Shown piece after piece: positions 8,843 through 31,797 of a stretch of DNA of 64,000 nucleotides (its first letter is position 1; each line of letters starts with the position of its first letter). Position numbers and translations under genes: made by a program. Where the stretch lies: contig JAFATB010000006.1 in the NCBI GenBank assembly GCA_019244185.1, positions 553,614 through 617,613 on the forward strand, read 5' to 3'. Under the pieces are notes generated by a model. The model searched no databases. It saw only the letters and a program-made list of their open reading frames with translations, and was not told the origin of the DNA. This DNA comes from Acidobacteriota bacterium (GTDB lineage Bacteria > Acidobacteriota > Thermoanaerobaculia > Gp7-AA8).

Positions 8843-10835
<1,993 letters not shown>

Positions 10836-10839
<4 letters not shown>

Positions 10840-11414
10840 AAGAGCATCTCGTCATCGCCACGCGCACGACGCTCGTGCTGCTCGTGCTGGTCAGCGGCAT
10901 CTATCCCGCGATCGTGTGGGGAATCGGCCAGCTCGCGTTTCGCGACGCCGCGAACGGCTCGCTCATCGTGCGCGACGGCCGCGTCGTCGGCTCGTCGCTC
11001 ATCGCGCAGCCGTTCACGAGCGCGCGCTACTTTCATCCGCGACCATCCGCCGTCGATTACAACGCGCAGGGTTCCGGCGGAAGCAACCTCGGTCCGACGT
11101 CGCAGAAACTGCGCGACCGCATCGTCGCGGACGTGCGCGCACTGCAGACGACGACGCGCGCGACGAACATCCCGCCCGACGCCGTCACGACGTCCGCGTC
11201 CGGACTCGATCCGCACATCTCGCCCGAATACGCGCTGCTGCAAGTGCCGCGCGTCGCGCGTGCGCGGCATCTCGACGAAGCCAACCTCCGCGCGCTCGTG
11301 CGCGGTCACACCGAGGGACGCTTTCTCGGCGTGTACGGCGAGCCGCGCGTCAACGTGTTGCAGCTCAACCTCGCGCTCGACGCGCTGGTCTCCCGCGATG
11401 GCGCGCGCGAGTGA
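10836..11414 (+). CDS. kdpC: K+-transporting ATPase subunit C
   Basis: [43 protein letters not shown]. Confidence 0.96.
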
Positions 11415-12540
11415 GCCGCGCCGGCCCGACCCCGACGAGCTGCTGCGTCTCGCCGGCACGAGTCGCGATGGGCGCGGGCGCCTCGCCGTGTACCTCGGCA
11501 TGGCCGCGGGTGTCGGCAAGACCGTGCGCATGCTCGACGATGCGCACGCCGCGCGCCGCGCCGGCATCGACGTCGTGCTCGGCTTCGTCGAAACGCACGG
11601 CCGCATCGAGACCGCGCAACGCATCGGCGAGCTCGAACAGATCGCGCGCCGGACCGTCGTGCATCGCGGCGTGACCATCGACGAAATGGATGTCGACGCG
11701 ATCCTCGCGCGGCACGCCGATCTCGTCGTCGTCGACGAGCTGCCGCATACGAACGCGCCGGCGTCGCGCAACGAAAAGCGCTGGCAGGACGTCGAGGAGA
11801 TCCTCGCCAGCGGCGCGTCGGTGATGACCGCGCTCAACGTGCAGCATCTCGAAGGCGTGCAGGACGTCGTCCGCTCCGCCACCGGCATCGACATCCGCGA
11901 GCGCGTTCCGGATCGCATCCTTCGCGACGCGCACTCCGTCGTGCTCGTCGACATCCCGGTGCCGGAACTGCTCGAGCGACTGCGCGCGGGAAAGATCTAT
12001 CCGCCGGAGCAGGCCGCGCGCGCGCTCGGCAACTTCTTTCGCGCGGAGCTGCTCACGCGTTTGCGCGAGCTCGCGCTGCTGCAGACGGCGACGTTCAGCG
12101 GCGCCGCGCAGAACGGCGACGTCACGAGCGAAGTGCGGCTGGCGGTCGCGGTGCCGTTCGATCCCGAGATCGCGCGTCCGCTGCTCTTGCGCGCGTCGCG
12201 GATCGCGGGACGGATGAACACGCGCTGGTTCGCGCTGTACGTGCGGCAGGAGCGCGAACATCCGCGGAACATCACCGCCGAGGAGCATCGGAAGCTCAGC
12301 GAGAACGTGCAGCTCGCGATCGCGCTCGGCGCGACCGTCGTCACGCGCGAATCGGAAGACATCGCCGGCGCGATCTGCGCGTTCGCGGCGGAAGCGCGCA
12401 TCAACCTGCTCGTCGTCGGCAAGCCGACGCGCCCCGGCTTCTTCAGCCGCTTCGTGCCGAGCATCGTGCACAAGCTGCTCGACCGCGGCGGCGGCTTCGA
12501 TCTGGTGATCGTCGACACCGCCCGCGCCGAGCGACCTTAA
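11398..12540 (+). CDS. kdpD: KdpD N-terminal sensor domain + Usp domain (no TM or kinase)
   Basis: [46 protein letters not shown], followed by a Usp-like region. Confidence 0.9.
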
Positions 12541-24377: not shown

Positions 24378-25859
24378 TCAGCTGTTCGGGGTGAGGATAT
24401 ACGTCACCAGTCCGCCGTGGCGCCGCGTGGGATCGGCGACGAGGTGGAACTCCTTCCCGCTGACGTGTTTGATGCCGATGCTCAGATGGGTACAGGTGCC
24501 GTTGATCTTGAGCTCATTTCCGTTGCCGGGAGTGAGTTTGCAGTCGATCTTGTCCCACAGGCTGTAGTAGTCGGCTTTGGCCATCGGGTCGTAATACTTC
24601 TTGAGAAGCTTGACCAGCACCGCGGCGTGGCTCGTAAAGACGAAGAACCCGTCTTTCTTGATGCCGTTGTATTCGATATTGCTCTTGATCTGCGGATCGA
24701 TGAACGTAGGGACTCTCACAATCGCCGACTGGTTCTGCGGGAGTACATAATCCGTCTCGGCGTCCACGCCGTACTTCTGGAGAATCGTGGCGAACGCATT
24801 CGCGAGCGTAATGCAGCTTCCGTAGCGGTCCAGTGAATTCGGGTTCTCCATGAAATCCTCGGCCTGGTCGTCGGTGCCGATGAACGCCGTCCCATTGACC
24901 AGCGCGGACGCAGAGTACCGGAAGCCATAGTTCGTGAATTCTTTGAACAGCCTGTCGACGAACAGCCGCAGGCTGGCCTTGTCGTTTACATGGACGGCCG
25001 TGGATCCGTAATAGAGCTCGCCCTTCTTGCCTTTGGTCACGCTACGCGTGATGTACCCCATCGGATCGCGCTGCTGCCATTGAATATTGCTCCAGCCAAG
25101 GCGCAGGTGCGTCAATCGCGTATCGAGCGTGGTGAGGTCGTTTTCGAGCGCGTTGTACTGCCCTTCGTTGTACGCGGCCCGATCGAGATTGTTGAATCGC
25201 TGCTGGATCTGGACCAATACGGTCGGCGGCCGCATCCAGGAACGGTTCGTCGCAAAGTCATTGAGCGTATTCGCGATTTTCGTGCGCAGATTGTCGCGCA
25301 GCGTATTGATGCGCGTCTCCTGTTCGTTGTAGCCCTGCATGAAGCCGAGCAGCCAATTGAAGCGGTTGTATGTGAGCGGCTGGGCCGTACCCGGCGGGAG
25401 CCGCCGCGGCGGCGCGGCATCCACGCGCTGCACGGCCTGAATCGCCATCCGCTCCGCCTCCGCTTCCAGCATCGCATCCTGCACGACCGCCACGCCGCTG
25501 CCGCTTACATTCCGCACGCGTCCCGTCCGCTGCTGCACGACGTGCGCGAGCTCGTGCGCGAGCGTATGCCGCCCATGCGGCGTGGCCGGATCGTACTGGC
25601 CGGCCGCGAAATGAATGTGCGAGCCGTGCGTGAACGCCTGCGCGCGGATCGCCTGCGCCACCGCGCTCGACGGATGGACGCGCACGTGATCGAACCGCTG
25701 CCCGAACGCCGCTTCCATCCGCTGCCGTACATCGGCCGCCAATGGCTGCCCACCCTGCACCGGCAACCGCGCCGCCTCCTGCGGCGAGAGCCGCGCCGGA
25801 ACCTGTGCCCCGCGAGGAAACCGCCCTTGAATCACCGAGCCGTTCATCGGATGAGCCAT
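24378..25859 (-). CDS. DUF4157 (eCIS core domain) protein with divergent C-terminal putative toxin domain
   Basis: GQPL...MEAAFG..F..VRVH, AQAFTHGSHIHF, LAHELAHVVQQ, LEAEAERMA. Confidence 0.85.
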   Translation of the reverse strand: MAHPMNGSVIQGRFPRGAQVPARLSPQEAARLPVQGGQPLAADVRQRMEAAFGQRFDHVRVHPSSAVAQAIRAQAFTHGSHIHFAAGQYDPATPHGRHTLAHELAHVVQQRTGRVRNVSGSGVAVVQDAMLEAEAERMAIQAVQRVDAAPPRRLPPGTAQPLTYNRFNWLLGFMQGYNEQETRINTLRDNLRTKIANTLNDFATNRSWMRPPTVLVQIQQRFNNLDRAAYNEGQYNALENDLTTLDTRLTHLRLGWSNIQWQQRDPMGYITRSVTKGKKGELYYGSTAVHVNDKASLRLFVDRLFKEFTNYGFRYSASALVNGTAFIGTDDQAEDFMENPNSLDRYGSCITLANAFATILQKYGVDAETDYVLPQNQSAIVRVPTFIDPQIKSNIEYNGIKKDGFFVFTSHAAVLVKLLKKYYDPMAKADYYSLWDKIDCKLTPGNGNELKINGTCTHLSIGIKHVSGKEFHLVADPTRRHGGLVTYILTPNS

Positions 25860-25922: not shown

Positions 25923-25998
25923 TGGCTGTGGCGGGAGGGCTCGAACCTCCGACCACCGGATTAACAATCCGGCGCTCTACCAACTGAGCTACACCACA
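25923..25998 (-). tRNA. tRNA-Asn (GTT)
   Basis: 76-nt cloverleaf: TGTGGTG/CGCCACA acceptor stem, anticodon arm CCGGA-TTGTTAA-TCCGG, TTCGAGC T-loop, discriminator G and CCA. Confidence 0.97.
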
Positions 25999-26740: not shown

Positions 26741-27936
26741 AGCTCGGTTCCTTTCGTTTCGGGTAGGAGCCAGATGAGGACCCCGCCGAGCGCGAAGAAC
26801 GCGGCGTCGGCGGCGAGGGAGAAGCGGAAGCCGTACGTCGCCGCCGCGGCGCCGATCGCGTACGGCGCGGCCGCGGACGCGAGGCGGCCGCCGTTGTAGC
26901 AGAAGCCCTGCGCGCTCGCGCGGATGCGCGTCGGAAAGAGCTCGGCGAGCATCGCGCCGAACAGCGAGAAATAGCCGTGCGCGAAGTAGCCTACCAGCGG
27001 GCCGATGAGCAGGAGCGTCAGCTTCGAGCGCGCGCCGAATGCGAACAGCGGCACCACCGCGGTCGCGGCGATCATGAAGAAGGTGAACGCGGGACGGCGT
27101 CCGATGCGGTCGGCAATCCAGCCGAAGCTCACATAGCCGAAGAACGCTCCGATCTGCAGCACGATCAGCCACGCGGCCGACTTCGTCAGCGTCAGCCCCG
27201 CGCCGCCCTGCGCCACAGGCGTCGCCAGAAACGCGGGCAGCCACGACGTCACGCCCCAGAATGCGACGAGCACGCTGCTCGCGAGGAGCGTCGCCAGCAC
27301 GACGCGCGCGCGGAATGCGGGGCCGAACAGCTCGAGCCAGCGCGACGGCTCGCGCGCGCGCCACACCTCCGGCTCTTCGACGTTGCGGCGAATCGCGAAC
27401 GCGAGCACCGCCGGCAGCGCGCCGATGAGAAACAGCACGCGCCAGCCGAAGCGCTCGAGGACGAGCGCGGAAATGCCCGCGGCGAAGAGCGCGCCGATCG
27501 CCCACCCCGCCTGCATGATCCCCATCGCCTTCGCGCGATGTTGCGCAGGCCACGTCTCCGCGACGAGTACCGAGCCGCAGGACCACTCGCCGCCCATGCC
27601 GAGGCCGACCAGCACGCGCCACGCGATGAGCTGCCAGAGCGCGGACGACGTCGCGAGGCCCGCGGTCGCGGCGGAGTACAGCAGGATGCTGAACGTCATC
27701 GCGCGCACGCGGCCGATGCGATCGGCGAGACGTCCGAAGCCGATGCCGCCGATCGCGCTCGCGATGAGCGCCACCGACGTGAGGCCGCCCATCGTCGACT
27801 TGGCGAGGCCGAACTCCTGCTGGATCGGCACGACGGCGAAGGTGAAGAGGAGGAAGTCCATCGCGTCGAGCATCCAGCCGAGCTGCGCGGCGAACAATGC
27901 GCGCCACGCGCGGCGGTCGACGTCGATGAAGGACAT
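26737..27936 (-). CDS. MFS transporter (aromatic acid / SHS-like)
   Basis: GWMLDAMD, GRLADRIGR, GLGMGGEW, ELFPTRIRAS, LPETKG. Confidence 0.9.
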   Translation of the reverse strand: MSFIDVDRRAWRALFAAQLGWMLDAMDFLLFTFAVVPIQQEFGLAKSTMGGLTSVALIASAIGGIGFGRLADRIGRVRAMTFSILLYSAATAGLATSSALWQLIAWRVLVGLGMGGEWSCGSVLVAETWPAQHRAKAMGIMQAGWAIGALFAAGISALVLERFGWRVLFLIGALPAVLAFAIRRNVEEPEVWRAREPSRWLELFGPAFRARVVLATLLASSVLVAFWGVTSWLPAFLATPVAQGGAGLTLTKSAAWLIVLQIGAFFGYVSFGWIADRIGRRPAFTFFMIAATAVVPLFAFGARSKLTLLLIGPLVGYFAHGYFSLFGAMLAELFPTRIRASAQGFCYNGGRLASAAAPYAIGAAAATYGFRFSLAADAAFFALGGVLIWLLPETKGTEL

Positions 27937-27985
27937 CGCGGCGGAGTGTACAACGCCGCCGCGATGCCGGTTCAACGCGAGAGAT

Positions 27986-28032
27986 TCATCAGGACGAAAG
28001 GGCCGCGATCATGGCAACCGCTCACAAGCGCC
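27986..28032 (+). repeat. Inverted repeat, left arm of precursor cassette 1
   Basis: tcatcaggacgaaagggccgcgatcatggcaaccgctca is complementary to 28356-28398. Confidence 0.8.
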
Positions 28033-28138
28033 GGATTCAGGGACTGCACCGGCGGCATCTCAATTTGCATTCGAAGTCGGTTTAAAGCCGGAACATCGAC
28101 AGCGGACCGCCGTGCGATCCGCCGAACAGCGCCGAATC

Positions 28139-28261
28139 TTACGCGCCGCCGCAGAGAACCGCGACAGCGATCAGGGCGCCGACCGCAAAACCATTCCAGA
28201 AGTCCGTGGCGGCTTCGCTGATGGGGGCGACGACGTTTTCCATTTCTTCGATCATGAGCAT
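28139..28261 (-). CDS. RiPP precursor peptide, CGGA type (40 aa)
   Basis: MLMIEEMENVVAPISEAATDFWNGFAVGALIAVAVLCGGA; AAGGAG RBS; paralog at 30244-30366. Confidence 0.9.
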   Translation of the reverse strand: MLMIEEMENVVAPISEAATDFWNGFAVGALIAVAVLCGGA

Positions 28262-28355
28262 GTGAGTGATCTCCTTTTCCATGTAGTGGGCGATTCGATT
28301 GGGGGTGTAACTGCCGGGGACATGACAACCGGACGCCGAGGGGCTACTGCATCGT

Positions 28356-28398
28356 GGCGCTGAGGGTTGCCGTGATCGCGGCTCTCTCCTCCTGATGA
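28356..28398 (-). repeat. Inverted repeat, right arm of precursor cassette 1
   Basis: Minus strand reads tcatcaggaggagagagccgcgatcacggcaaccctcagcgcc. Confidence 0.8.
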
Positions 28399-28402
28399 CT
28401 CC

Positions 28403-29629
28403 TTATTCGTAACGAAGACATTCGATCGGATCGAGCATGGAGGCTTTCCACGCCGGATACAGACCGAAAAGAATTCCGATGGCCGCGGGGACGAGGAACG
28501 CGCTGCTGACGGCCCACAACGGAATGGGACTGAACGAGCCGAAGAATCCGTGGCTGATCGCGCCGCCGGCCGCATAGCCGAGCGCAACGCCGGCCGCTCC
28601 GCCGAGGAGCGATAAGAGCGACGCTTCAATGAGGAACTGCACCAGGATGTCGCGCGGCTTGGCGCCGACGGATTTCCGGATGCCGATCTCACGCGTGCGC
28701 TCGGTGACCGTGACGAGCATGATGTTCATGATGCCGACGCCGCCGACGAGCAGCGCGATCGACACCATGCCGCCGGCCACGGCGCCGATGAAGCGCGTAA
28801 TGCCGGAGACGATGGAGACGAACTGCCGCTGGCTGAAGACGCGGAAGCCTTCCTGCTCTTTCGGTTTGAGGCCTTTGACGCGGCGTAATGCGGCGGTGAC
28901 GAGCTCCGCACCGTCATCCGCGCTGACCTTCGAGTCGATGCGCACCTGAAAGAACAGCTGATGGCGCTGCTCTTCGGTGAGCATCGGCAGGCCGGTGCGC
29001 AGCGGGATGAGGATCATGCTGTCGGGATCGGCGCCGAGGGTTGCGCCGCGTTCCTCCAGCACGCCGATGATCTCGAGTCCGAGAGACGGCGTCTGAATGA
29101 TCTTGCCGATGGGATTGCCTTTGATGGCGAGCTTCTCGAGCACCTTCGGGCCGACGATGACCACTTTGCTGCCGAGGCGGATCTCCGCCGGGACGAAATT
29201 GCGTCCGGTCTTGACGTTGATGTCGTTGAGCTCGAGATAGGTCTCGTCCGACATCAGCATGTTGACGGAGGTGGTGTGGCCGTTGGCCTTGAGATCGGTG
29301 CTCGTCAATGCGAGGGGTGTGACCTGGGTGACCTGGCGCACGAGGCGTTGCACGGCCTTCATGTCGTCTGCGGTCAGGTCGCGATTGCGGACTTTCCCAT
29401 ATTCCTCGAGCGGAACGTCGCCCGGCAGGAGAGGGCGGACGAGCAGCGTCTGGCTGCCGGCGCGCTCGATTTCCTGCAGGATGCTGCGCTCCATTCCCTG
29501 GACGAGGCTGACCACGGCGATGACGCTGGTCACGCCGATGACGATGCCCAGGGAGGTGAGGATCGAGCGCATTTTGTTCGCTTGGAGCGATTTGAGCGCC
29601 GCACGCAATGGCTCGATGAGGCCGAACAT
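28403..29629 (-). CDS. MacB/FtsX-type ABC transporter permease
   Basis: NKMRSILTSLGIVIGV, LLVGGVGIMNIMLVTVTERTREIGIRKSVGA, LDPIECLRYE; AAGGA RBS before ATG 29629. Confidence 0.92.
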   Translation of the reverse strand: MFGLIEPLRAALKSLQANKMRSILTSLGIVIGVTSVIAVVSLVQGMERSILQEIERAGSQTLLVRPLLPGDVPLEEYGKVRNRDLTADDMKAVQRLVRQVTQVTPLALTSTDLKANGHTTSVNMLMSDETYLELNDINVKTGRNFVPAEIRLGSKVVIVGPKVLEKLAIKGNPIGKIIQTPSLGLEIIGVLEERGATLGADPDSMILIPLRTGLPMLTEEQRHQLFFQVRIDSKVSADDGAELVTAALRRVKGLKPKEQEGFRVFSQRQFVSIVSGITRFIGAVAGGMVSIALLVGGVGIMNIMLVTVTERTREIGIRKSVGAKPRDILVQFLIEASLLSLLGGAAGVALGYAAGGAISHGFFGSFSPIPLWAVSSAFLVPAAIGILFGLYPAWKASMLDPIECLRYE

Positions 29630-29678
29630 GGGATGAGGTCCTTTCTGTAAATTAATTGAGCGTTTGTGAACCCGAGGC

Positions 29679-29712
29679 CCCATTACGGCCTTCCGGAGAA
29701 GGCCGTAATGGG
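29679..29712. other. Perfect 15-bp stem-loop between precursor genes and permease
   Basis: CCCATTACGGCCTTC-CGGA-GAAGGCCGTAATGGG; no U-tract. Confidence 0.75.
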
Positions 29713-29736
29713 ATGGCCGGAACTGCATGGCGATCC

Positions 29737-29795
29737 GCAGAAAAGAGCCGCGACCACGGCGATCAGCAACCCGTCAGCTTCACACCCACAGCAAA
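29737..29795 (+). repeat. Inverted repeat, left arm of precursor cassette 2
   Basis: gcagaaaagagccgcgaccacggcgatc...tcacacccacagcaaa is complementary to 30444-30494. Confidence 0.8.
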
Positions 29796-29837
29796 ACTGA
29801 CGACGACTCGCCAAGGGACTCTTTCAGCCGAAGCCGA

Positions 29838-29960
29838 TTACGACGAGAGAGCCGCGATGATGATGATCGTCGCCGCGCCGGCGCCAGCACCCGCGAGCCA
29901 CGTTCCGACGCTGGGGGCAACCACTTCTTCCATCTCTTCGATCATGAGCACGTTGTTCAT
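29838..29960 (-). CDS. RiPP precursor peptide, LSS type (40 aa)
   Basis: MNNVLMIEEMEEVVAPSVGTWLAGAGAGAATIIIIAALSS; AAGGA RBS. Confidence 0.9.
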   Translation of the reverse strand: MNNVLMIEEMEEVVAPSVGTWLAGAGAGAATIIIIAALSS

Positions 29961-30033
29961 TGGAGTCTTTCCTTTTCTCTGAAGTTGGTGAAACGTTGTT
30001 GTTTAGGGACCGGGTCTGTTGGTGGACGACGGA

Positions 30034-30156
30034 CTACGAGGAGAGCGCCGCGATGATGATGATCGTCGCCGCGCCGGCGCCAGCGCCCGCGAGCCACGTT
30101 CCGACGCTGGGGGCAACCACTTCTTCCATCTCTTCGATCATGAGCATGTTGTTCAT
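30034..30156 (-). CDS. RiPP precursor peptide, LSS type (40 aa), near-identical duplicate
   Basis: MNNMLMIEEMEEVVAPSVGTWLAGAGAGAATIIIIAALSS; differences within the core are synonymous. Confidence 0.9.
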   Translation of the reverse strand: MNNMLMIEEMEEVVAPSVGTWLAGAGAGAATIIIIAALSS

Positions 30157-30243
30157 TGGAGTCTTCCTTTTCTTTCTTTTAGTTAGTTTGTGAAAGGGCC
30201 CGAAATGAATCAATGCCCGTACTGCGTGTGAAGCAGAGGCGTC

Positions 30244-30366
30244 TTATGCGCCGCCGCAGAGGATCGCGCCCGCGATGAGCGCGCCGATGGCGAAGCCCTG
30301 CCAGAAGTCGTTCGCGGCCTCGCTGATCGGGGCAACGATGGTTTCCATCTCTTCGATCATGACCAT
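30244..30366 (-). CDS. RiPP precursor peptide, CGGA type (40 aa)
   Basis: MVMIEEMETIVAPISEAANDFWQGFAIGALIAGAILCGGA; AAGGAG RBS. Confidence 0.9.
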   Translation of the reverse strand: MVMIEEMETIVAPISEAANDFWQGFAIGALIAGAILCGGA

Positions 30367-30443
30367 GTGCGTAATCTCCTTTCTATAAGATGATGTTGCC
30401 GTACTGCCAAAACCGGGGTCCCGTACAACCTAGCGCCGCCAGC

Positions 30444-30494
30444 TTTACTGCGGGTGTGAGCGCTGCGATTGCCTTGGTCGCGGCTCTTTACTGC
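30444..30494 (-). repeat. Inverted repeat, right arm of precursor cassette 2
   Basis: Minus strand reads gcagtaaagagccgcgaccaaggcaatc...tcacacccgcagtaaa. Confidence 0.8.
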
Positions 30495-30525
30495 CGACCG
30501 GACCACGATTCGATTGATGCCTGAT

Positions 30526-31797
30526 TCAGTTGGCGGAGTGCCGCTCCTGCTCGCGCTGTTTCCGCTCCTCCTGCGAGTCGGACAGGTGATGCAGCGTGAC
30601 GTCCGCCTTGTCCTTGAGATCGCGCAGCTTGCGCAGAGGGCCTGTAATGACCTTGTCGCCTTGTGCGAGACCGTGTTGGACTTCGTAATACTGGCTGTCG
30701 GCGATTCCGAGCGTGACCGTCTTCTCGTCGACCTTGCCGTCTTTGTTCGCGACCATGACCACGGAGCGCGTCTGCGGGACGAACAGACCCTGCTTGCGCG
30801 CGTCGTCCATCGAACCTTCGCGCTCGAGCACCGACTGCAGCGGCACGCGCACGGCATTGTTCGCGTCCGCGGTCAGAATCACCGCCCGCGCGCTCATACC
30901 GGGGCGCAGCAACGCCATGTCGCGGTCGGTGACCGTGAGGAACACCTTGACCTTGTACATGTTCGCGTCCTGACCGGTCGCTTCGGCCGCGGAGGCGATC
31001 TCGCTGATCGTGCCGCGGAAAATGCGGTCCGGCAGCGGCTCGACGCTGACCTGCGCCGGCTGACCGACTTTGAGACGCACCACTTCGTTCTCGTTGACCT
31101 TGATCTCGGCGCACGTGTCGGTCATGTCCGAGACGACCATGAGCACCGCGCCGGGGAGGTTGCTCGTGCCCGGAATGGCCATTTCGCCTTTTTCCGCGCG
31201 CAGTGAGGTCACGCGGCCCACAATGGGCGAGCGGATCTCGGTTTTCGTGAGACCGTCGCGCATGGCCGCGACGTTGGCCTCGTTCTGTGCGACGTTCGCT
31301 CGCGCCGACTGTGCGGTGAACTCCGCGCTCTCCATGCCGATCTTCGCCTGGCGGTCCGCCTCGACGGAGACGAGCCCTTGATGGAACAGCGCGTCGGTGC
31401 GCTGGTACGTTTCACCCGCGAGCCGCCGGGCCGCGTCGAGACGGGCCGCGTCTTTGCGAGCCGACTCGAGCAGCGCCTCCGCTTGCGAGAGCTGCTGCCG
31501 CAGACGCTCCGGATCGATGCGTACGAGCAGCTGTCCCGCCTGCACGTACTCGCCGTCCTTGACCAGGAGCTCCGTGATCTCGCCGGCCACGTTGGTGCCG
31601 ATGTTCACGCGGGTGCGGGCCTGGATCTCGCCGCTGGCCTGGATGGTCTCGCGCACTTCTCCGCGGTCGACCACGTCCCAGTTGAGGGCGTCGGCTTCGC
31701 TGCCGGTCTTTCCGAACGTCAGTCCGAGGCTGAGCATGACCGCGCAGCCGAGGACGATCGCCATCTGAATCTTCGTTCGCTTGCGCATTGGAATCAA
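30526..31797 (-). CDS. Efflux periplasmic adaptor (membrane fusion protein)
   Basis: ASGEIQ, VKDGEYVQAGQLLVRID, IRSPIVG, LRPGMSARAVI, GLAQGDKVITG. Confidence 0.92.
   Translation of the reverse strand: MIPMRKRTKIQMAIVLGCAVMLSLGLTFGKTGSEADALNWDVVDRGEVRETIQASGEIQARTRVNIGTNVAGEITELLVKDGEYVQAGQLLVRIDPERLRQQLSQAEALLESARKDAARLDAARRLAGETYQRTDALFHQGLVSVEADRQAKIGMESAEFTAQSARANVAQNEANVAAMRDGLTKTEIRSPIVGRVTSLRAEKGEMAIPGTSNLPGAVLMVVSDMTDTCAEIKVNENEVVRLKVGQPAQVSVEPLPDRIFRGTISEIASAAEATGQDANMYKVKVFLTVTDRDMALLRPGMSARAVILTADANNAVRVPLQSVLEREGSMDDARKQGLFVPQTRSVVMVANKDGKVDEKTVTLGIADSQYYEVQHGLAQGDKVITGPLRKLRDLKDKADVTLHHLSDSQEERKQREQERHSAN

Follow-up and report, generated by a model that had tools for sequence, protein, structure and literature searches.

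A candidate ThiF-dependent peptide gene cluster of Acidobacteria that pairs a protease-adenylase fusion with two types of hydrophobic precursor

The stretch of DNA analysed here, called the window, comprises 64,000 nucleotides (nt) from an Acidobacteriota bacterium (Thermoanaerobaculia; Gp7-AA8; assembly GCA_019244185.1, contig JAFATB010000006.1, positions 553,614-617,613 of the forward strand), and all coordinates below are positions within it. It contains a minus-strand operon that encodes, in this order, a 789-residue enzyme, a protein with four predicted membrane helices, a Yip1/YknW-like protein, a MacA-like adaptor, the small peptides A1, B1 and B2, a MacB/FtsX permease and a further small peptide, A2, with the peptide genes in the region 28,139-30,366. 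The cluster is flanked by holA upstream and by an MFS transporter gene downstream, which are its probable borders, and its GC content of 0.61-0.65 is somewhat below that of the flanks (0.66-0.71). A scan for promoters and terminators returned no promoter-like and five terminator-like sites, not above shuffled sequence. The cluster is one that we incline to regard as encoding peptides that are ribosomally synthesised and modified post-translationally (RiPPs) and as a candidate ThiF-dependent family. The four peptide genes are as follows.

30244-30366, minus strand: precursor A1, 40 amino acids (aa), of which 13 form the leader (last residues AP) and 27 the hydrophobic core (last residues CGGA), with an AGGAG box
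30034-30156, minus strand: precursor B1, 40 aa, of which 16 form the leader (last residues AP) and 24 the core (last residues LSS); the listed open reading frame (ORF) extends to 30213
29838-29960, minus strand: precursor B2, 40 aa, core as in B1, leader with the change M4V
28139-28261, minus strand: precursor A2, 40 aa with the likely ATG at 28261; the listed ORF reaches 28282 and has 47 aa

A first-pass annotation of this DNA had recognised four small ORFs at these positions, two core types in two copies each. All four indeed carry a ribosome-binding site, an AGGAG or AGGAA box 6-9 nt 5' of the chosen ATG, and share the leader motif IEEME..(V/I)VAP. It had also described the type A cores as diverged with their main features kept, and this holds: A1 and A2 differ in 20 codons (12 synonymous and 8 conservative non-synonymous changes) and both retain DFW, GFAxG and CGGA. 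For type B, said to be identical in protein, the identity extends to the cores, which are separated by three synonymous differences, and not to the whole length, as the M4V change in the leader sets the copies apart. Their stop codons differ as well, and beyond the segment bounded by ribosome-binding site and stop codon B1 and B2 at once cease to be similar. The type B peptides of the window have neither a Cys nor an acidic core residue. Against the daptide MpaA2 precursor model NF041806 both type A peptides give weak matches, A1 with E 0.008 and 15.9 bits (cut-off 40) and A2 with E 0.0034, also below the curated cut-off. In three metagenome runs that are a possible source of the window DNA, a 100-nt contig common to B1 and B2 has 2-2.7 times the flanking depth, which matches two copies. 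A diverged relative of 27700-30800 is present in run X4, which is a soil metagenome; it shows many substitutions and small insertions or deletions, several of them clustered in the B1 core.

The enzyme at the head of the operon was described with Pfam, NCBIfam, an alignment, an AlphaFold2 (AF2) model and Foldseek; its domain limits are approximate.

33024-35393, minus strand: four-domain enzyme of 789 aa
35106-35369, minus strand (aa 9-96): leader-binding domain 1, a strand-then-three-helix module in the AF2 model
34137-35021, minus strand (aa 125-419): site-2-type membrane metalloprotease with HELGH and NxxPxxxxDG, a helical membrane domain in the AF2 model
33834-34088, minus strand (aa 436-520): leader-binding domain 2, or peptide clamp, a strand-then-three-helix module in the AF2 model
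33048-33791, minus strand (aa 535-782): ThiF/E1 adenylase, a Rossmann-type domain in the AF2 model

Pfam finds ThiF (PF00899, 1.1e-50) and Peptidase_M50 (4.4e-9) in this protein. Its N-terminal 400 residues or so match the daptide intramembrane metalloprotease model NF041824 over profile positions 13-376 of 379 with E 1.8e-67 and 228 bits, below the cut-off of 300, and by sequence this half is a homologue of that protease and not its equivalog. Among solved structures the ThiF half is closest in sequence to MccB (1e-34), followed by MoeB (1.4e-22), ThiF (4.9e-22) and PaaA (1.7e-20, with a match from residue 451). The AF2 model, with a mean pLDDT of 75.4 and a pTM of 0.42, shows the two strand-then-three-helix modules at about residues 9-96 and 436-520, or 27-96 and 436-518 by narrower limits. 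Searched with Foldseek, it again retrieves MccB (E 3.4e-21, TM 0.75 on the target) and next PaaA (2.4e-20); the alignment with MccB runs over about 350 columns, so that the fold match takes in the peptide-clamp domain. From sequence and model, the C-terminal half thus appears as a peptide clamp and E1 of the MccB/PaaA type, and the N-terminal half as a leader-binding domain and site-2 protease of the MpaP type.

The residues expected of both activities are preserved. In an alignment of 25 homologues, with identity down to 43%, HELGH and NxxPxxxxDG are invariant in the protease half and GxGGxG, D594, R605/Q606, K618, D663 and the two CxxC pairs of the zinc site in the ThiF half. The adenylating enzyme that the first-pass annotation had assumed is therefore present, with all its nucleotide-binding and zinc motifs invariant and MccB as its closest solved relative. 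The same alignment contains no conserved Cys beyond the zinc site and one structural position, and hence no candidate for a thioester or persulfide, which fits direct chemistry of the MccB/PaaA type. In sum, the locus shows an intact nucleotide site, a joined clamp domain and adjacent short precursor genes with a conserved leader, the sequence-level marks of a ThiF RiPP system. A complex prediction with two copies of residues 430-789, ATP, Mg and a type A precursor scored 0.02 with a mark of 0.32 and bears on binding neither way.

How widespread is this arrangement? A protein search at E <= 2.8e-148 gave 46 clusters, with Thermoanaerobaculia and Bryobacteraceae among the source names. ThiF is found in all 46 and M50 also in 43; the three that lack M50, on contigs of 1.9-3.3 kb, are probably truncated, and the protease-adenylase fusion is present in all 43 full-length members. 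Locus searches yielded 18 relatives, all from Acidobacteria-like genomes or metagenomes: five from a genome collection (L001-L005; Acidobacteria, Granulicella, Acidobacteriales, Bryobacterales), where the other 75 kept loci match one half only, and 13 from a metagenome collection (L081-L093), which also holds nine M50-only relatives. At E <= 1e-60 the enzyme occurs, among 401 sampled genomes of the phylum, only in the window's own genome, where it has a single copy (0 of 400 others, and 0 of 7 others in its family). The cluster is a rare, patchily distributed accessory cluster.

The loci that match one half belong to different systems and were set aside. Those with only the ThiF part (L006-L080, L029 excepted) have no homologue of the protease half or of the four-helix protein, and those with only M50 (L029, L094-L102) none of the ThiF half or of the four-helix protein. 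A search with the leader pattern found no precursor-like peptides in L029 and L094-L102, nor in L006-L012, the part of L006-L080 that was searched. In L029, from a Terriglobia genome, a fusion of leader-binding domain, M50 and HlyD-like part (9896-12028, plus strand) adjoins a 129-aa ORF (12123-12512, minus strand) in which a short N-terminal part is followed by about 14 tandem hexapeptide repeats resembling SPAKRV, maybe a different peptide system.

Precursor genes accompany the enzyme gene across the family. By leader-pattern search followed by ORF calling, 30 further precursors were found in 16 loci, which together with the four of the window make a set of 34 from 17 sources. One false match in L002 (5640-5795), which is far away from the enzyme gene and lacks hydrophobicity, was dropped, and in L005 and L084 no upstream DNA is available. 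The enzymes of the 16 loci are 44-59% identical to that of the window. Because the same leader and core types recur in these loci, the four small ORFs of the window are confirmed by conservation as real and not chance. The labels A and B were assigned by the analyst from core alignments. Co-occurrence of the two types, which had been suggested as a check, is found in 14 of the 17 sources. L086 and L090 each show a single precursor, with about 1.1 kb of DNA upstream, and in L093 the upstream DNA is only 35 nt long. In the 16 loci the precursors lie directly upstream of the enzyme gene, and in all 13 of them with both types the order is B-like, A-like, enzyme; in the window they sit downstream of it.

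The cores are variable in detail and uniform in a few features. Of the 34, 33 contain GxxxG, which the first-pass annotation had singled out. Each peptide ends in a small residue (S 18, C 10, A 6), all 33 Cys residues fall within the last five positions, and every peptide has a Cys, Ser or Thr within its last four residues. These features, the small end and the confined Cys, point to chemistry at the C-terminal end as far as sequence can tell. The tails themselves vary (CGGA, CSS, FCS, GC, FTS, LSS and others). In 10 peptides the last residue is itself a Cys; in 5, 8 and 6 the nearest Cys lies 1, 2 or 3 residues before the last, and five of the 34 have none (both window B copies, the B peptides of L001 and L089, and the A peptide of L004), so that 29 have a Cys in the C-terminal region. 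Each of the 17 sources encodes at least one Cys-bearing peptide, and where one type has no Cys its partner does (window, L001, L089 and L004). An acidic residue occurs within the first nine core positions in 30 of 34; as read from the core lists, Asp and Glu are entirely absent from both B cores of the window, from L085 B and from L086. Hydrophobic helices with a negative charge are predicted as the mature peptides, an unusual type among membrane-active peptides of bacteria.

The remaining genes of the operon encode membrane and transport proteins.

32596-33066, minus strand: four-helix protein, 156 aa, with four predicted membrane helices and no known family
31794-32561, minus strand: membrane protein with a Yip1 domain, YknW-like (Pfam Yip1 1.1e-6; NCBIfam YknW_fam 6.9e-8, 32 bits against a cut-off of 110)
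30526-31797, minus strand: periplasmic adaptor (membrane fusion protein), MacA/YknX-like (HlyD_D23, HlyD_3; TIGR01730 9.1e-51)
28403-29629, minus strand: MacB/FtsX-type permease without an ATPase domain (MacB_PCD 1.2e-32, FtsX 2.4e-20); the listed ORF extends to 29728

The four-helix protein has no Pfam, NCBIfam or PADLOC match, its Atlas feature matches all stay below 0.9, and its structure matches reach TM <=0.54 and indicate no family. A homologue follows the enzyme gene in all 13 loci with downstream DNA, with conserved Q, R, K, E and W residues. We infer a conserved partner with an immunity or accessory role. The Yip1 gene follows the four-helix gene in 10 other loci (L001, L081-L084, L002, L004, L085, L087 and L091), and the adaptor is syntenic in L001 and L081-L084.

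In three loci a gene for a hydrolase of the metallo-beta-lactamase (MBL) fold follows Yip1 (L004, 13692-14414; L087, 9857-10621; L091, 9719-10570), in clusters without the pump genes downstream. The fold includes thioesterases and lactonases, and the hydrolase may serve in self-protection or tailoring. It was rejected as a member of the window cluster; the nearest homologue in the window's genome is on another contig, at 32% identity. Within the permease gene of the window, the depth summed over contigs goes up 10- to 70-fold across some 200 nt (28636-28843) in all four runs, presumably through a conserved FtsX segment common to many metagenome organisms.

The precursor genes of the window are bracketed by two pairs of inverted repeats, which touch on how they came to lie downstream of the enzyme gene. 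Strand is not assigned to the arms.

27983-28019: arm bracketing A2, which on the minus strand gives a B-like core tail and then two stop codons
28365-28401: partner arm bracketing A2, a 37-nt repeat, 86% complementary, whose plus strand reads as a B-like core tail and two stop codons
29731-29805: downstream arm bracketing A1-B1-B2, which reads as a frameshifted relic of a precursor core
30434-30500: upstream arm bracketing A1-B1-B2, inside a 44-aa plus-strand ORF (30390-30524), a decayed-looking core without a proper leader

The pair around A1-B1-B2 is 85% complementary, and the elements are 35-70 nt long. In its sequence the 44-aa ORF looks like a third core type. Repeat arms that resemble decayed cores, together with the unusual precursor position, point to precursor genes having been duplicated, inverted and left to decay in the past; the arms could be relics of such duplication and inversion, long-range RNA stems or recombination sites. 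Contigs of the four DNA runs, in which rare variants are dropped, show no strand-changing joint at the arms that would indicate ongoing inversion. About 2 kb from the downstream cluster border, the gene for a protein of 493 aa that has an eCIS core domain at its N-terminus (PF13699, 1.2e-26; 24378-25859, minus strand) adjoins tRNA-Asn (25923-25998, minus strand).

What might this set of genes do? From the domains, motifs, conserved features and gene order described above we infer a series of chemical steps, their order and the activity of the product. Precursors of both types would be made in the cytoplasm, where winged-helix leader-binding domains would bind the acidic leader (EE-M/L-E ... 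AP). The MccB-like ThiF domain would adenylate the C-terminal alpha-carboxylate with ATP, and the acyl-adenylate would be resolved, with no E1 thioester, by a nucleophile near the C-terminus: a Cys thiol or Ser/Thr hydroxyl if geometry permits, otherwise a backbone amide as in enterofaecin. The outcome would be a dehydrated, uncharged C-terminus. The site-2-type metalloprotease domain would then remove the leader after AP, as MpaP does in daptides, and the two glycine-zipper helices would act jointly in membranes, with the four-helix protein, the Yip1/YknW-like protein and the MacA/MacB-type pump protecting the producer or expelling the peptides. Taken as a whole, this mechanism, in which the cluster gives a pair of membrane-active peptides, has our qualified preference.

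Its parts deserve separate judgement. That the peptides are substrates of the 789-aa enzyme is very probable, and that the ThiF domain adenylates a carboxylate of the precursor is probable. For the C-terminal carboxylate as the one adenylated, our assent is more guarded, if still favourable. The main argument is that four cores contain no Asp or Glu, so that the C-terminal carboxylate is the only one common to all substrates. A (thio)lactone formed by Cys or Ser/Thr in at least one peptide type is possible and, in our estimate, rather doubtful. Ring closure on an adenylated carboxylate, thiolactones included, had been part of the first-pass annotation and is published for ThiF-like enzymes (GrcB; PMC12596934, PMC12250964). 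The two-peptide idea and C-terminal activation are thus supported, by conservation and by analogy with this chemistry.

Several observations weigh against the mechanism as drawn. The protease half scores below the cut-off of its daptide model. Outside the window, pump genes are confined to its closer relatives, namely L001 and L081-L084, and, differently arranged, to L087. The cluster contains no ABC ATPase gene, nor does the rest of the 64-kb window; the nearest is about 18.7 kb before the window start, and L001 likewise has none as far as it was scanned. The 34 cores carry 59 Asp or Glu residues against one Lys and no Arg; as the known two-peptide bacteriocins and the daptides are cationic, antimicrobial pore formation is only an analogy for these anionic cores. 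The variable spacing of Cys and the five Cys-less peptides mean that no single nucleophile can serve the whole family. A Cys or Ser in the last position allows only a strained four-membered ring, and peptides that end in this way with no other nucleophile nearby would need the strained ring, a backbone nucleophile or an outside partner.

These points bear most directly on the thiolactone. The first-pass annotation had proposed conservation of the Cys as a check and a thiolactone from Cys to C-terminus, as in autoinducing peptides (AIPs). The Cys does not keep a fixed place, with a distance to the end of 0-3 residues and its absence in five of the 34 peptides, and such spacing argues against one fixed ring. 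In L003 one enzyme faces tails as different as CSS and FFFC and must handle both, so that a single AIP-like thiolactone cannot describe the family and is excluded as its rule. A broader version would have one enzyme turn the C-termini of two anionic glycine-zipper peptides into reactive thioester or ester ends, as small (thio)lactones or as a covalent A-B thioester, which would make an Acidobacteria class not described before. The option of an A-B thioester is raised by the fact that every locus keeps at least one Cys-bearing partner; this version as a whole seems to us rather improbable.

The adenylated C-terminus might instead be passed to an outside nucleophile with no cyclisation at all. 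Candidates are ammonia or a small amine (giving an amide), sulfide (giving a thiocarboxylate, as in ThiS and MoaD), the amine of a lipid head group, or the partner peptide with its Cys or new N-terminus, which would create an A-B pair. Small residues at the tail recall the Gly-Gly ends by which E1 substrates can be threaded, no fixed Cys spacing would be required, and all 17 sources hold a Cys in the C-terminal region, a type without Cys always having a Cys-bearing partner. EnfB, moreover, amidates the C-terminus of its precursor with primary amines in vitro (PMC11256085). On the other hand, Pfam and NCBIfam scans found no conserved sulfur-transfer, E2-like or amine-forming gene in the clusters, the ThiF domain has no conserved catalytic Cys, and the native products of MccB, PaaA, GrcB, EnfB and IndF are all intramolecular (PMC12596934). 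We consider this route unlikely.

A head-to-tail macrolactam, already listed as an option in the first-pass annotation, would arise if the protease freed the core N-terminus for attack on a C-terminus activated by ThiF, in a ring of 21-29 residues. Fusion of protease and adenylase in 43 of 43 full-length members suits such a coupling, and no particular side chain is required. The homologous daptide protease, however, only removes leaders, a hydrophobic helix of 21-29 residues keeps its ends far apart, and the confinement of all 33 Cys residues to the last five positions would be left unexplained. With no head-to-tail closure among the ThiF-like reactions in the available parts of PMC12596934 and PMC12250964, we hold it to be very unlikely.

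Another possibility follows GrcB, which forms a thiolactone between a Glu side chain and a C-terminal Cys (PMC12596934): an Asp or Glu side chain near the core N-terminus would be adenylated and attacked by the Cys of the C-terminal region, giving a large thiolactone ring. The numbers seem inviting, with 30 of 34 cores acidic in the first nine positions and 29 of 34 with the Cys, and window type B has neither. Yet L085 B and L086 have a Cys and no acidic core residue, the ring would be about 20 residues long, compared with 5 in GrcB, and the peptides window B, L001 B, L089 B and L004 A would be unable to react although they are conserved under selection. Its prospects are slim.

Slimmer still are those of the idea that the ThiF domain is a docking module only, comparable to the E1-like partner of azoline-forming cyclodehydratases, and that the peptides are merely cleaved, which would leave them as unmodified hydrophobic peptides or small membrane proteins. 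The cluster has no other modifying enzyme, which would agree with it. The glycine-rich loop, the Arg, Gln, Lys and Asp residues aligned with the nucleotide-site stretches of MccB and the zinc CxxC pairs are nevertheless invariant in 25 homologues, and there is no YcaO partner nearby. Finally, the reading of the small ORFs as non-genes, or as unrelated to the enzyme in an ordinary efflux operon, can appeal to the abundance of short ORFs in GC-rich DNA (65 of at least 25 aa in 7 kb) and is close to refuted by leader and core types conserved beside the same enzyme in 16 further loci, by the ribosome-binding sites and by the excess of synonymous changes between A1 and A2.

Returning to C-terminal activation by the fused adenylase, why would it matter? 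ThiF-like enzymes are a quickly expanding source of peptide chemistry. Their products so far comprise a phosphoramidate, a bicyclic imide, a thiolactone, a macrocyclic imide and an indolylamide, each described for its own family, and new bioinformatic handles have been called for (PMC12596934). The four-domain fusion of leader protease and adenylase could be such a handle for finding further ThiF-like types, and its substrates carry a clean, conserved signature, with two types of peptide, no Cys outside the last five positions and a small residue at the C-terminus. With a host range of Acidobacteria-like soil bacteria, this is a well-defined candidate family with conserved substrates. If thioesters or lactones are formed on membrane helices, the chemistry would be new, and the mode of action possibly so too, and a covalent A-B pair would mean that E1 chemistry builds a two-chain membrane agent. 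If the ends are only amidated or imides, it would be a modest extension of known chemistry.

Among known systems the cluster has several partial counterparts. By the tests that define them it is not a microcin C, daptide, class IIb bacteriocin or agr peptide system. For agr, there is no AgrB-like match among the cluster proteins, and the nearest Cys lies 0-3 residues before the last or is absent, not five. A defence system of the CBASS type with Cap2 was rejected: PADLOC gave only generic E1-region matches (best 7.3e-17, residues ~525-712) and none for the neighbours. In the literature covered, to which Figure S1 of PMC12150305 and Table S1 of PMC11256085 did not belong, no fusion of site-2 protease and ThiF and no Acidobacteria family of this kind is described.

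Class IIb bacteriocins likewise consist of two different small peptides encoded side by side with GxxxG or glycine-zipper motifs, and GxxxG drives their helix pairing. Here, by contrast, the leader ends in AP and not in a double glycine, the cluster has no exporter with a C39 peptidase and no ABC ATPase gene, the peptides are anionic and modified or at least paired with a modifying enzyme, and the producers are two-membraned. The transport genes recall YknWXYZ of Bacillus subtilis and MacAB in that a Yip1/YknW-like protein, an adaptor and a MacB/FtsX permease share one operon. They differ in the missing ATPase gene and in a YknW model score below the cut-off. YknWXYZ confers resistance to a secreted peptide toxin.

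Closer in chemistry are the ThiF-like RiPP enzymes, in which the nucleophile is an Asn amide (MccB), a backbone amide (EnfB), an indole nitrogen (IndF) or a Cys thiol (GrcB) (PMC12150305; PMC12596934; PMC12250964; PMC11256085). IndF and EnfB act on the adenylated C-terminal carboxylate, and GrcB forms a thiolactone with a C-terminal Cys (PMC12150305; PMC11256085; PMC12596934). With IndF, EnfB and GrcB the enzyme of the window would share a leader-binding domain joined to ThiF and the capture of the carboxylate by a nucleophile a few residues away. Their precursors, from Firmicutes, have fixed motifs (NWYFI, WWIVI, Glu35...Cys39), a comparison made by description, whereas here the tails vary, and a single enzyme with a fused site-2-type protease is shared by two peptide types. 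An uncharacterised TLAT-peptidase fusion in the 'CxxxC-type' clusters of Streptococcus (PMC11256085) also joins a ThiF-like enzyme to a peptidase and goes with Cys-containing precursor tails; it differs in coming from Firmicutes.

MccB and PaaA are the best solved relatives of residues ~436-782 by both sequence and fold, with the same nucleotide-binding and zinc motifs. MccB needs a C-terminal Asn and PaaA a Glu-Glu-Asn (PMC11256085), whereas none of the 34 precursors here ends in Asn, a membrane protease carries the module as its C-terminal half, and hydrophobic helices of 21-29 residues would serve as substrates.

The closest analogy, absent from the first-pass annotation, is the daptide-type leader with its intramembrane leader protease. 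Daptide leaders carry ELExMEAP; modification of the C-terminus depends on the leader and precedes its removal, which is the task of an intramembrane protease with a fused leader-binding domain (10.1101/2023.03.08.531785). Hominicin, a daptide, makes pores in membranes and has an immunity protein that is itself a membrane protein (PMC12749797). ThiF is not mentioned in the two daptide papers that were checked for it. The likeness to the daptide systems (Mpa, TfDap, hominicin; MpaP) lies in the homology of the protease, in the leader logic (ELExMEAP against EE-M/L-E...AP), in the weak match of type A to the MpaA2 model, in several hydrophobic helical precursors per cluster and, as proposed here, in modification of the C-terminus before leader removal. 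The systems part at the C-terminus, where the Thr that is invariant in daptides is found in none of the 34 precursors, and in charge, with anionic cores here and two positive ends there. By Pfam and NCBIfam, none of the cluster genes encodes the daptide decarboxylase pair, aminotransferase or methyltransferase.

By sequence, then, the cluster reads as a leader and protease of the daptide kind in which the C-terminal chemistry is replaced by an MccB-type module. It would link two RiPP lineages that have been treated separately, daptide-type leader processing and MccB-type C-terminal activation, both of which alter the C-terminal carboxylate of a hydrophobic helix, each by a chemistry of its own.

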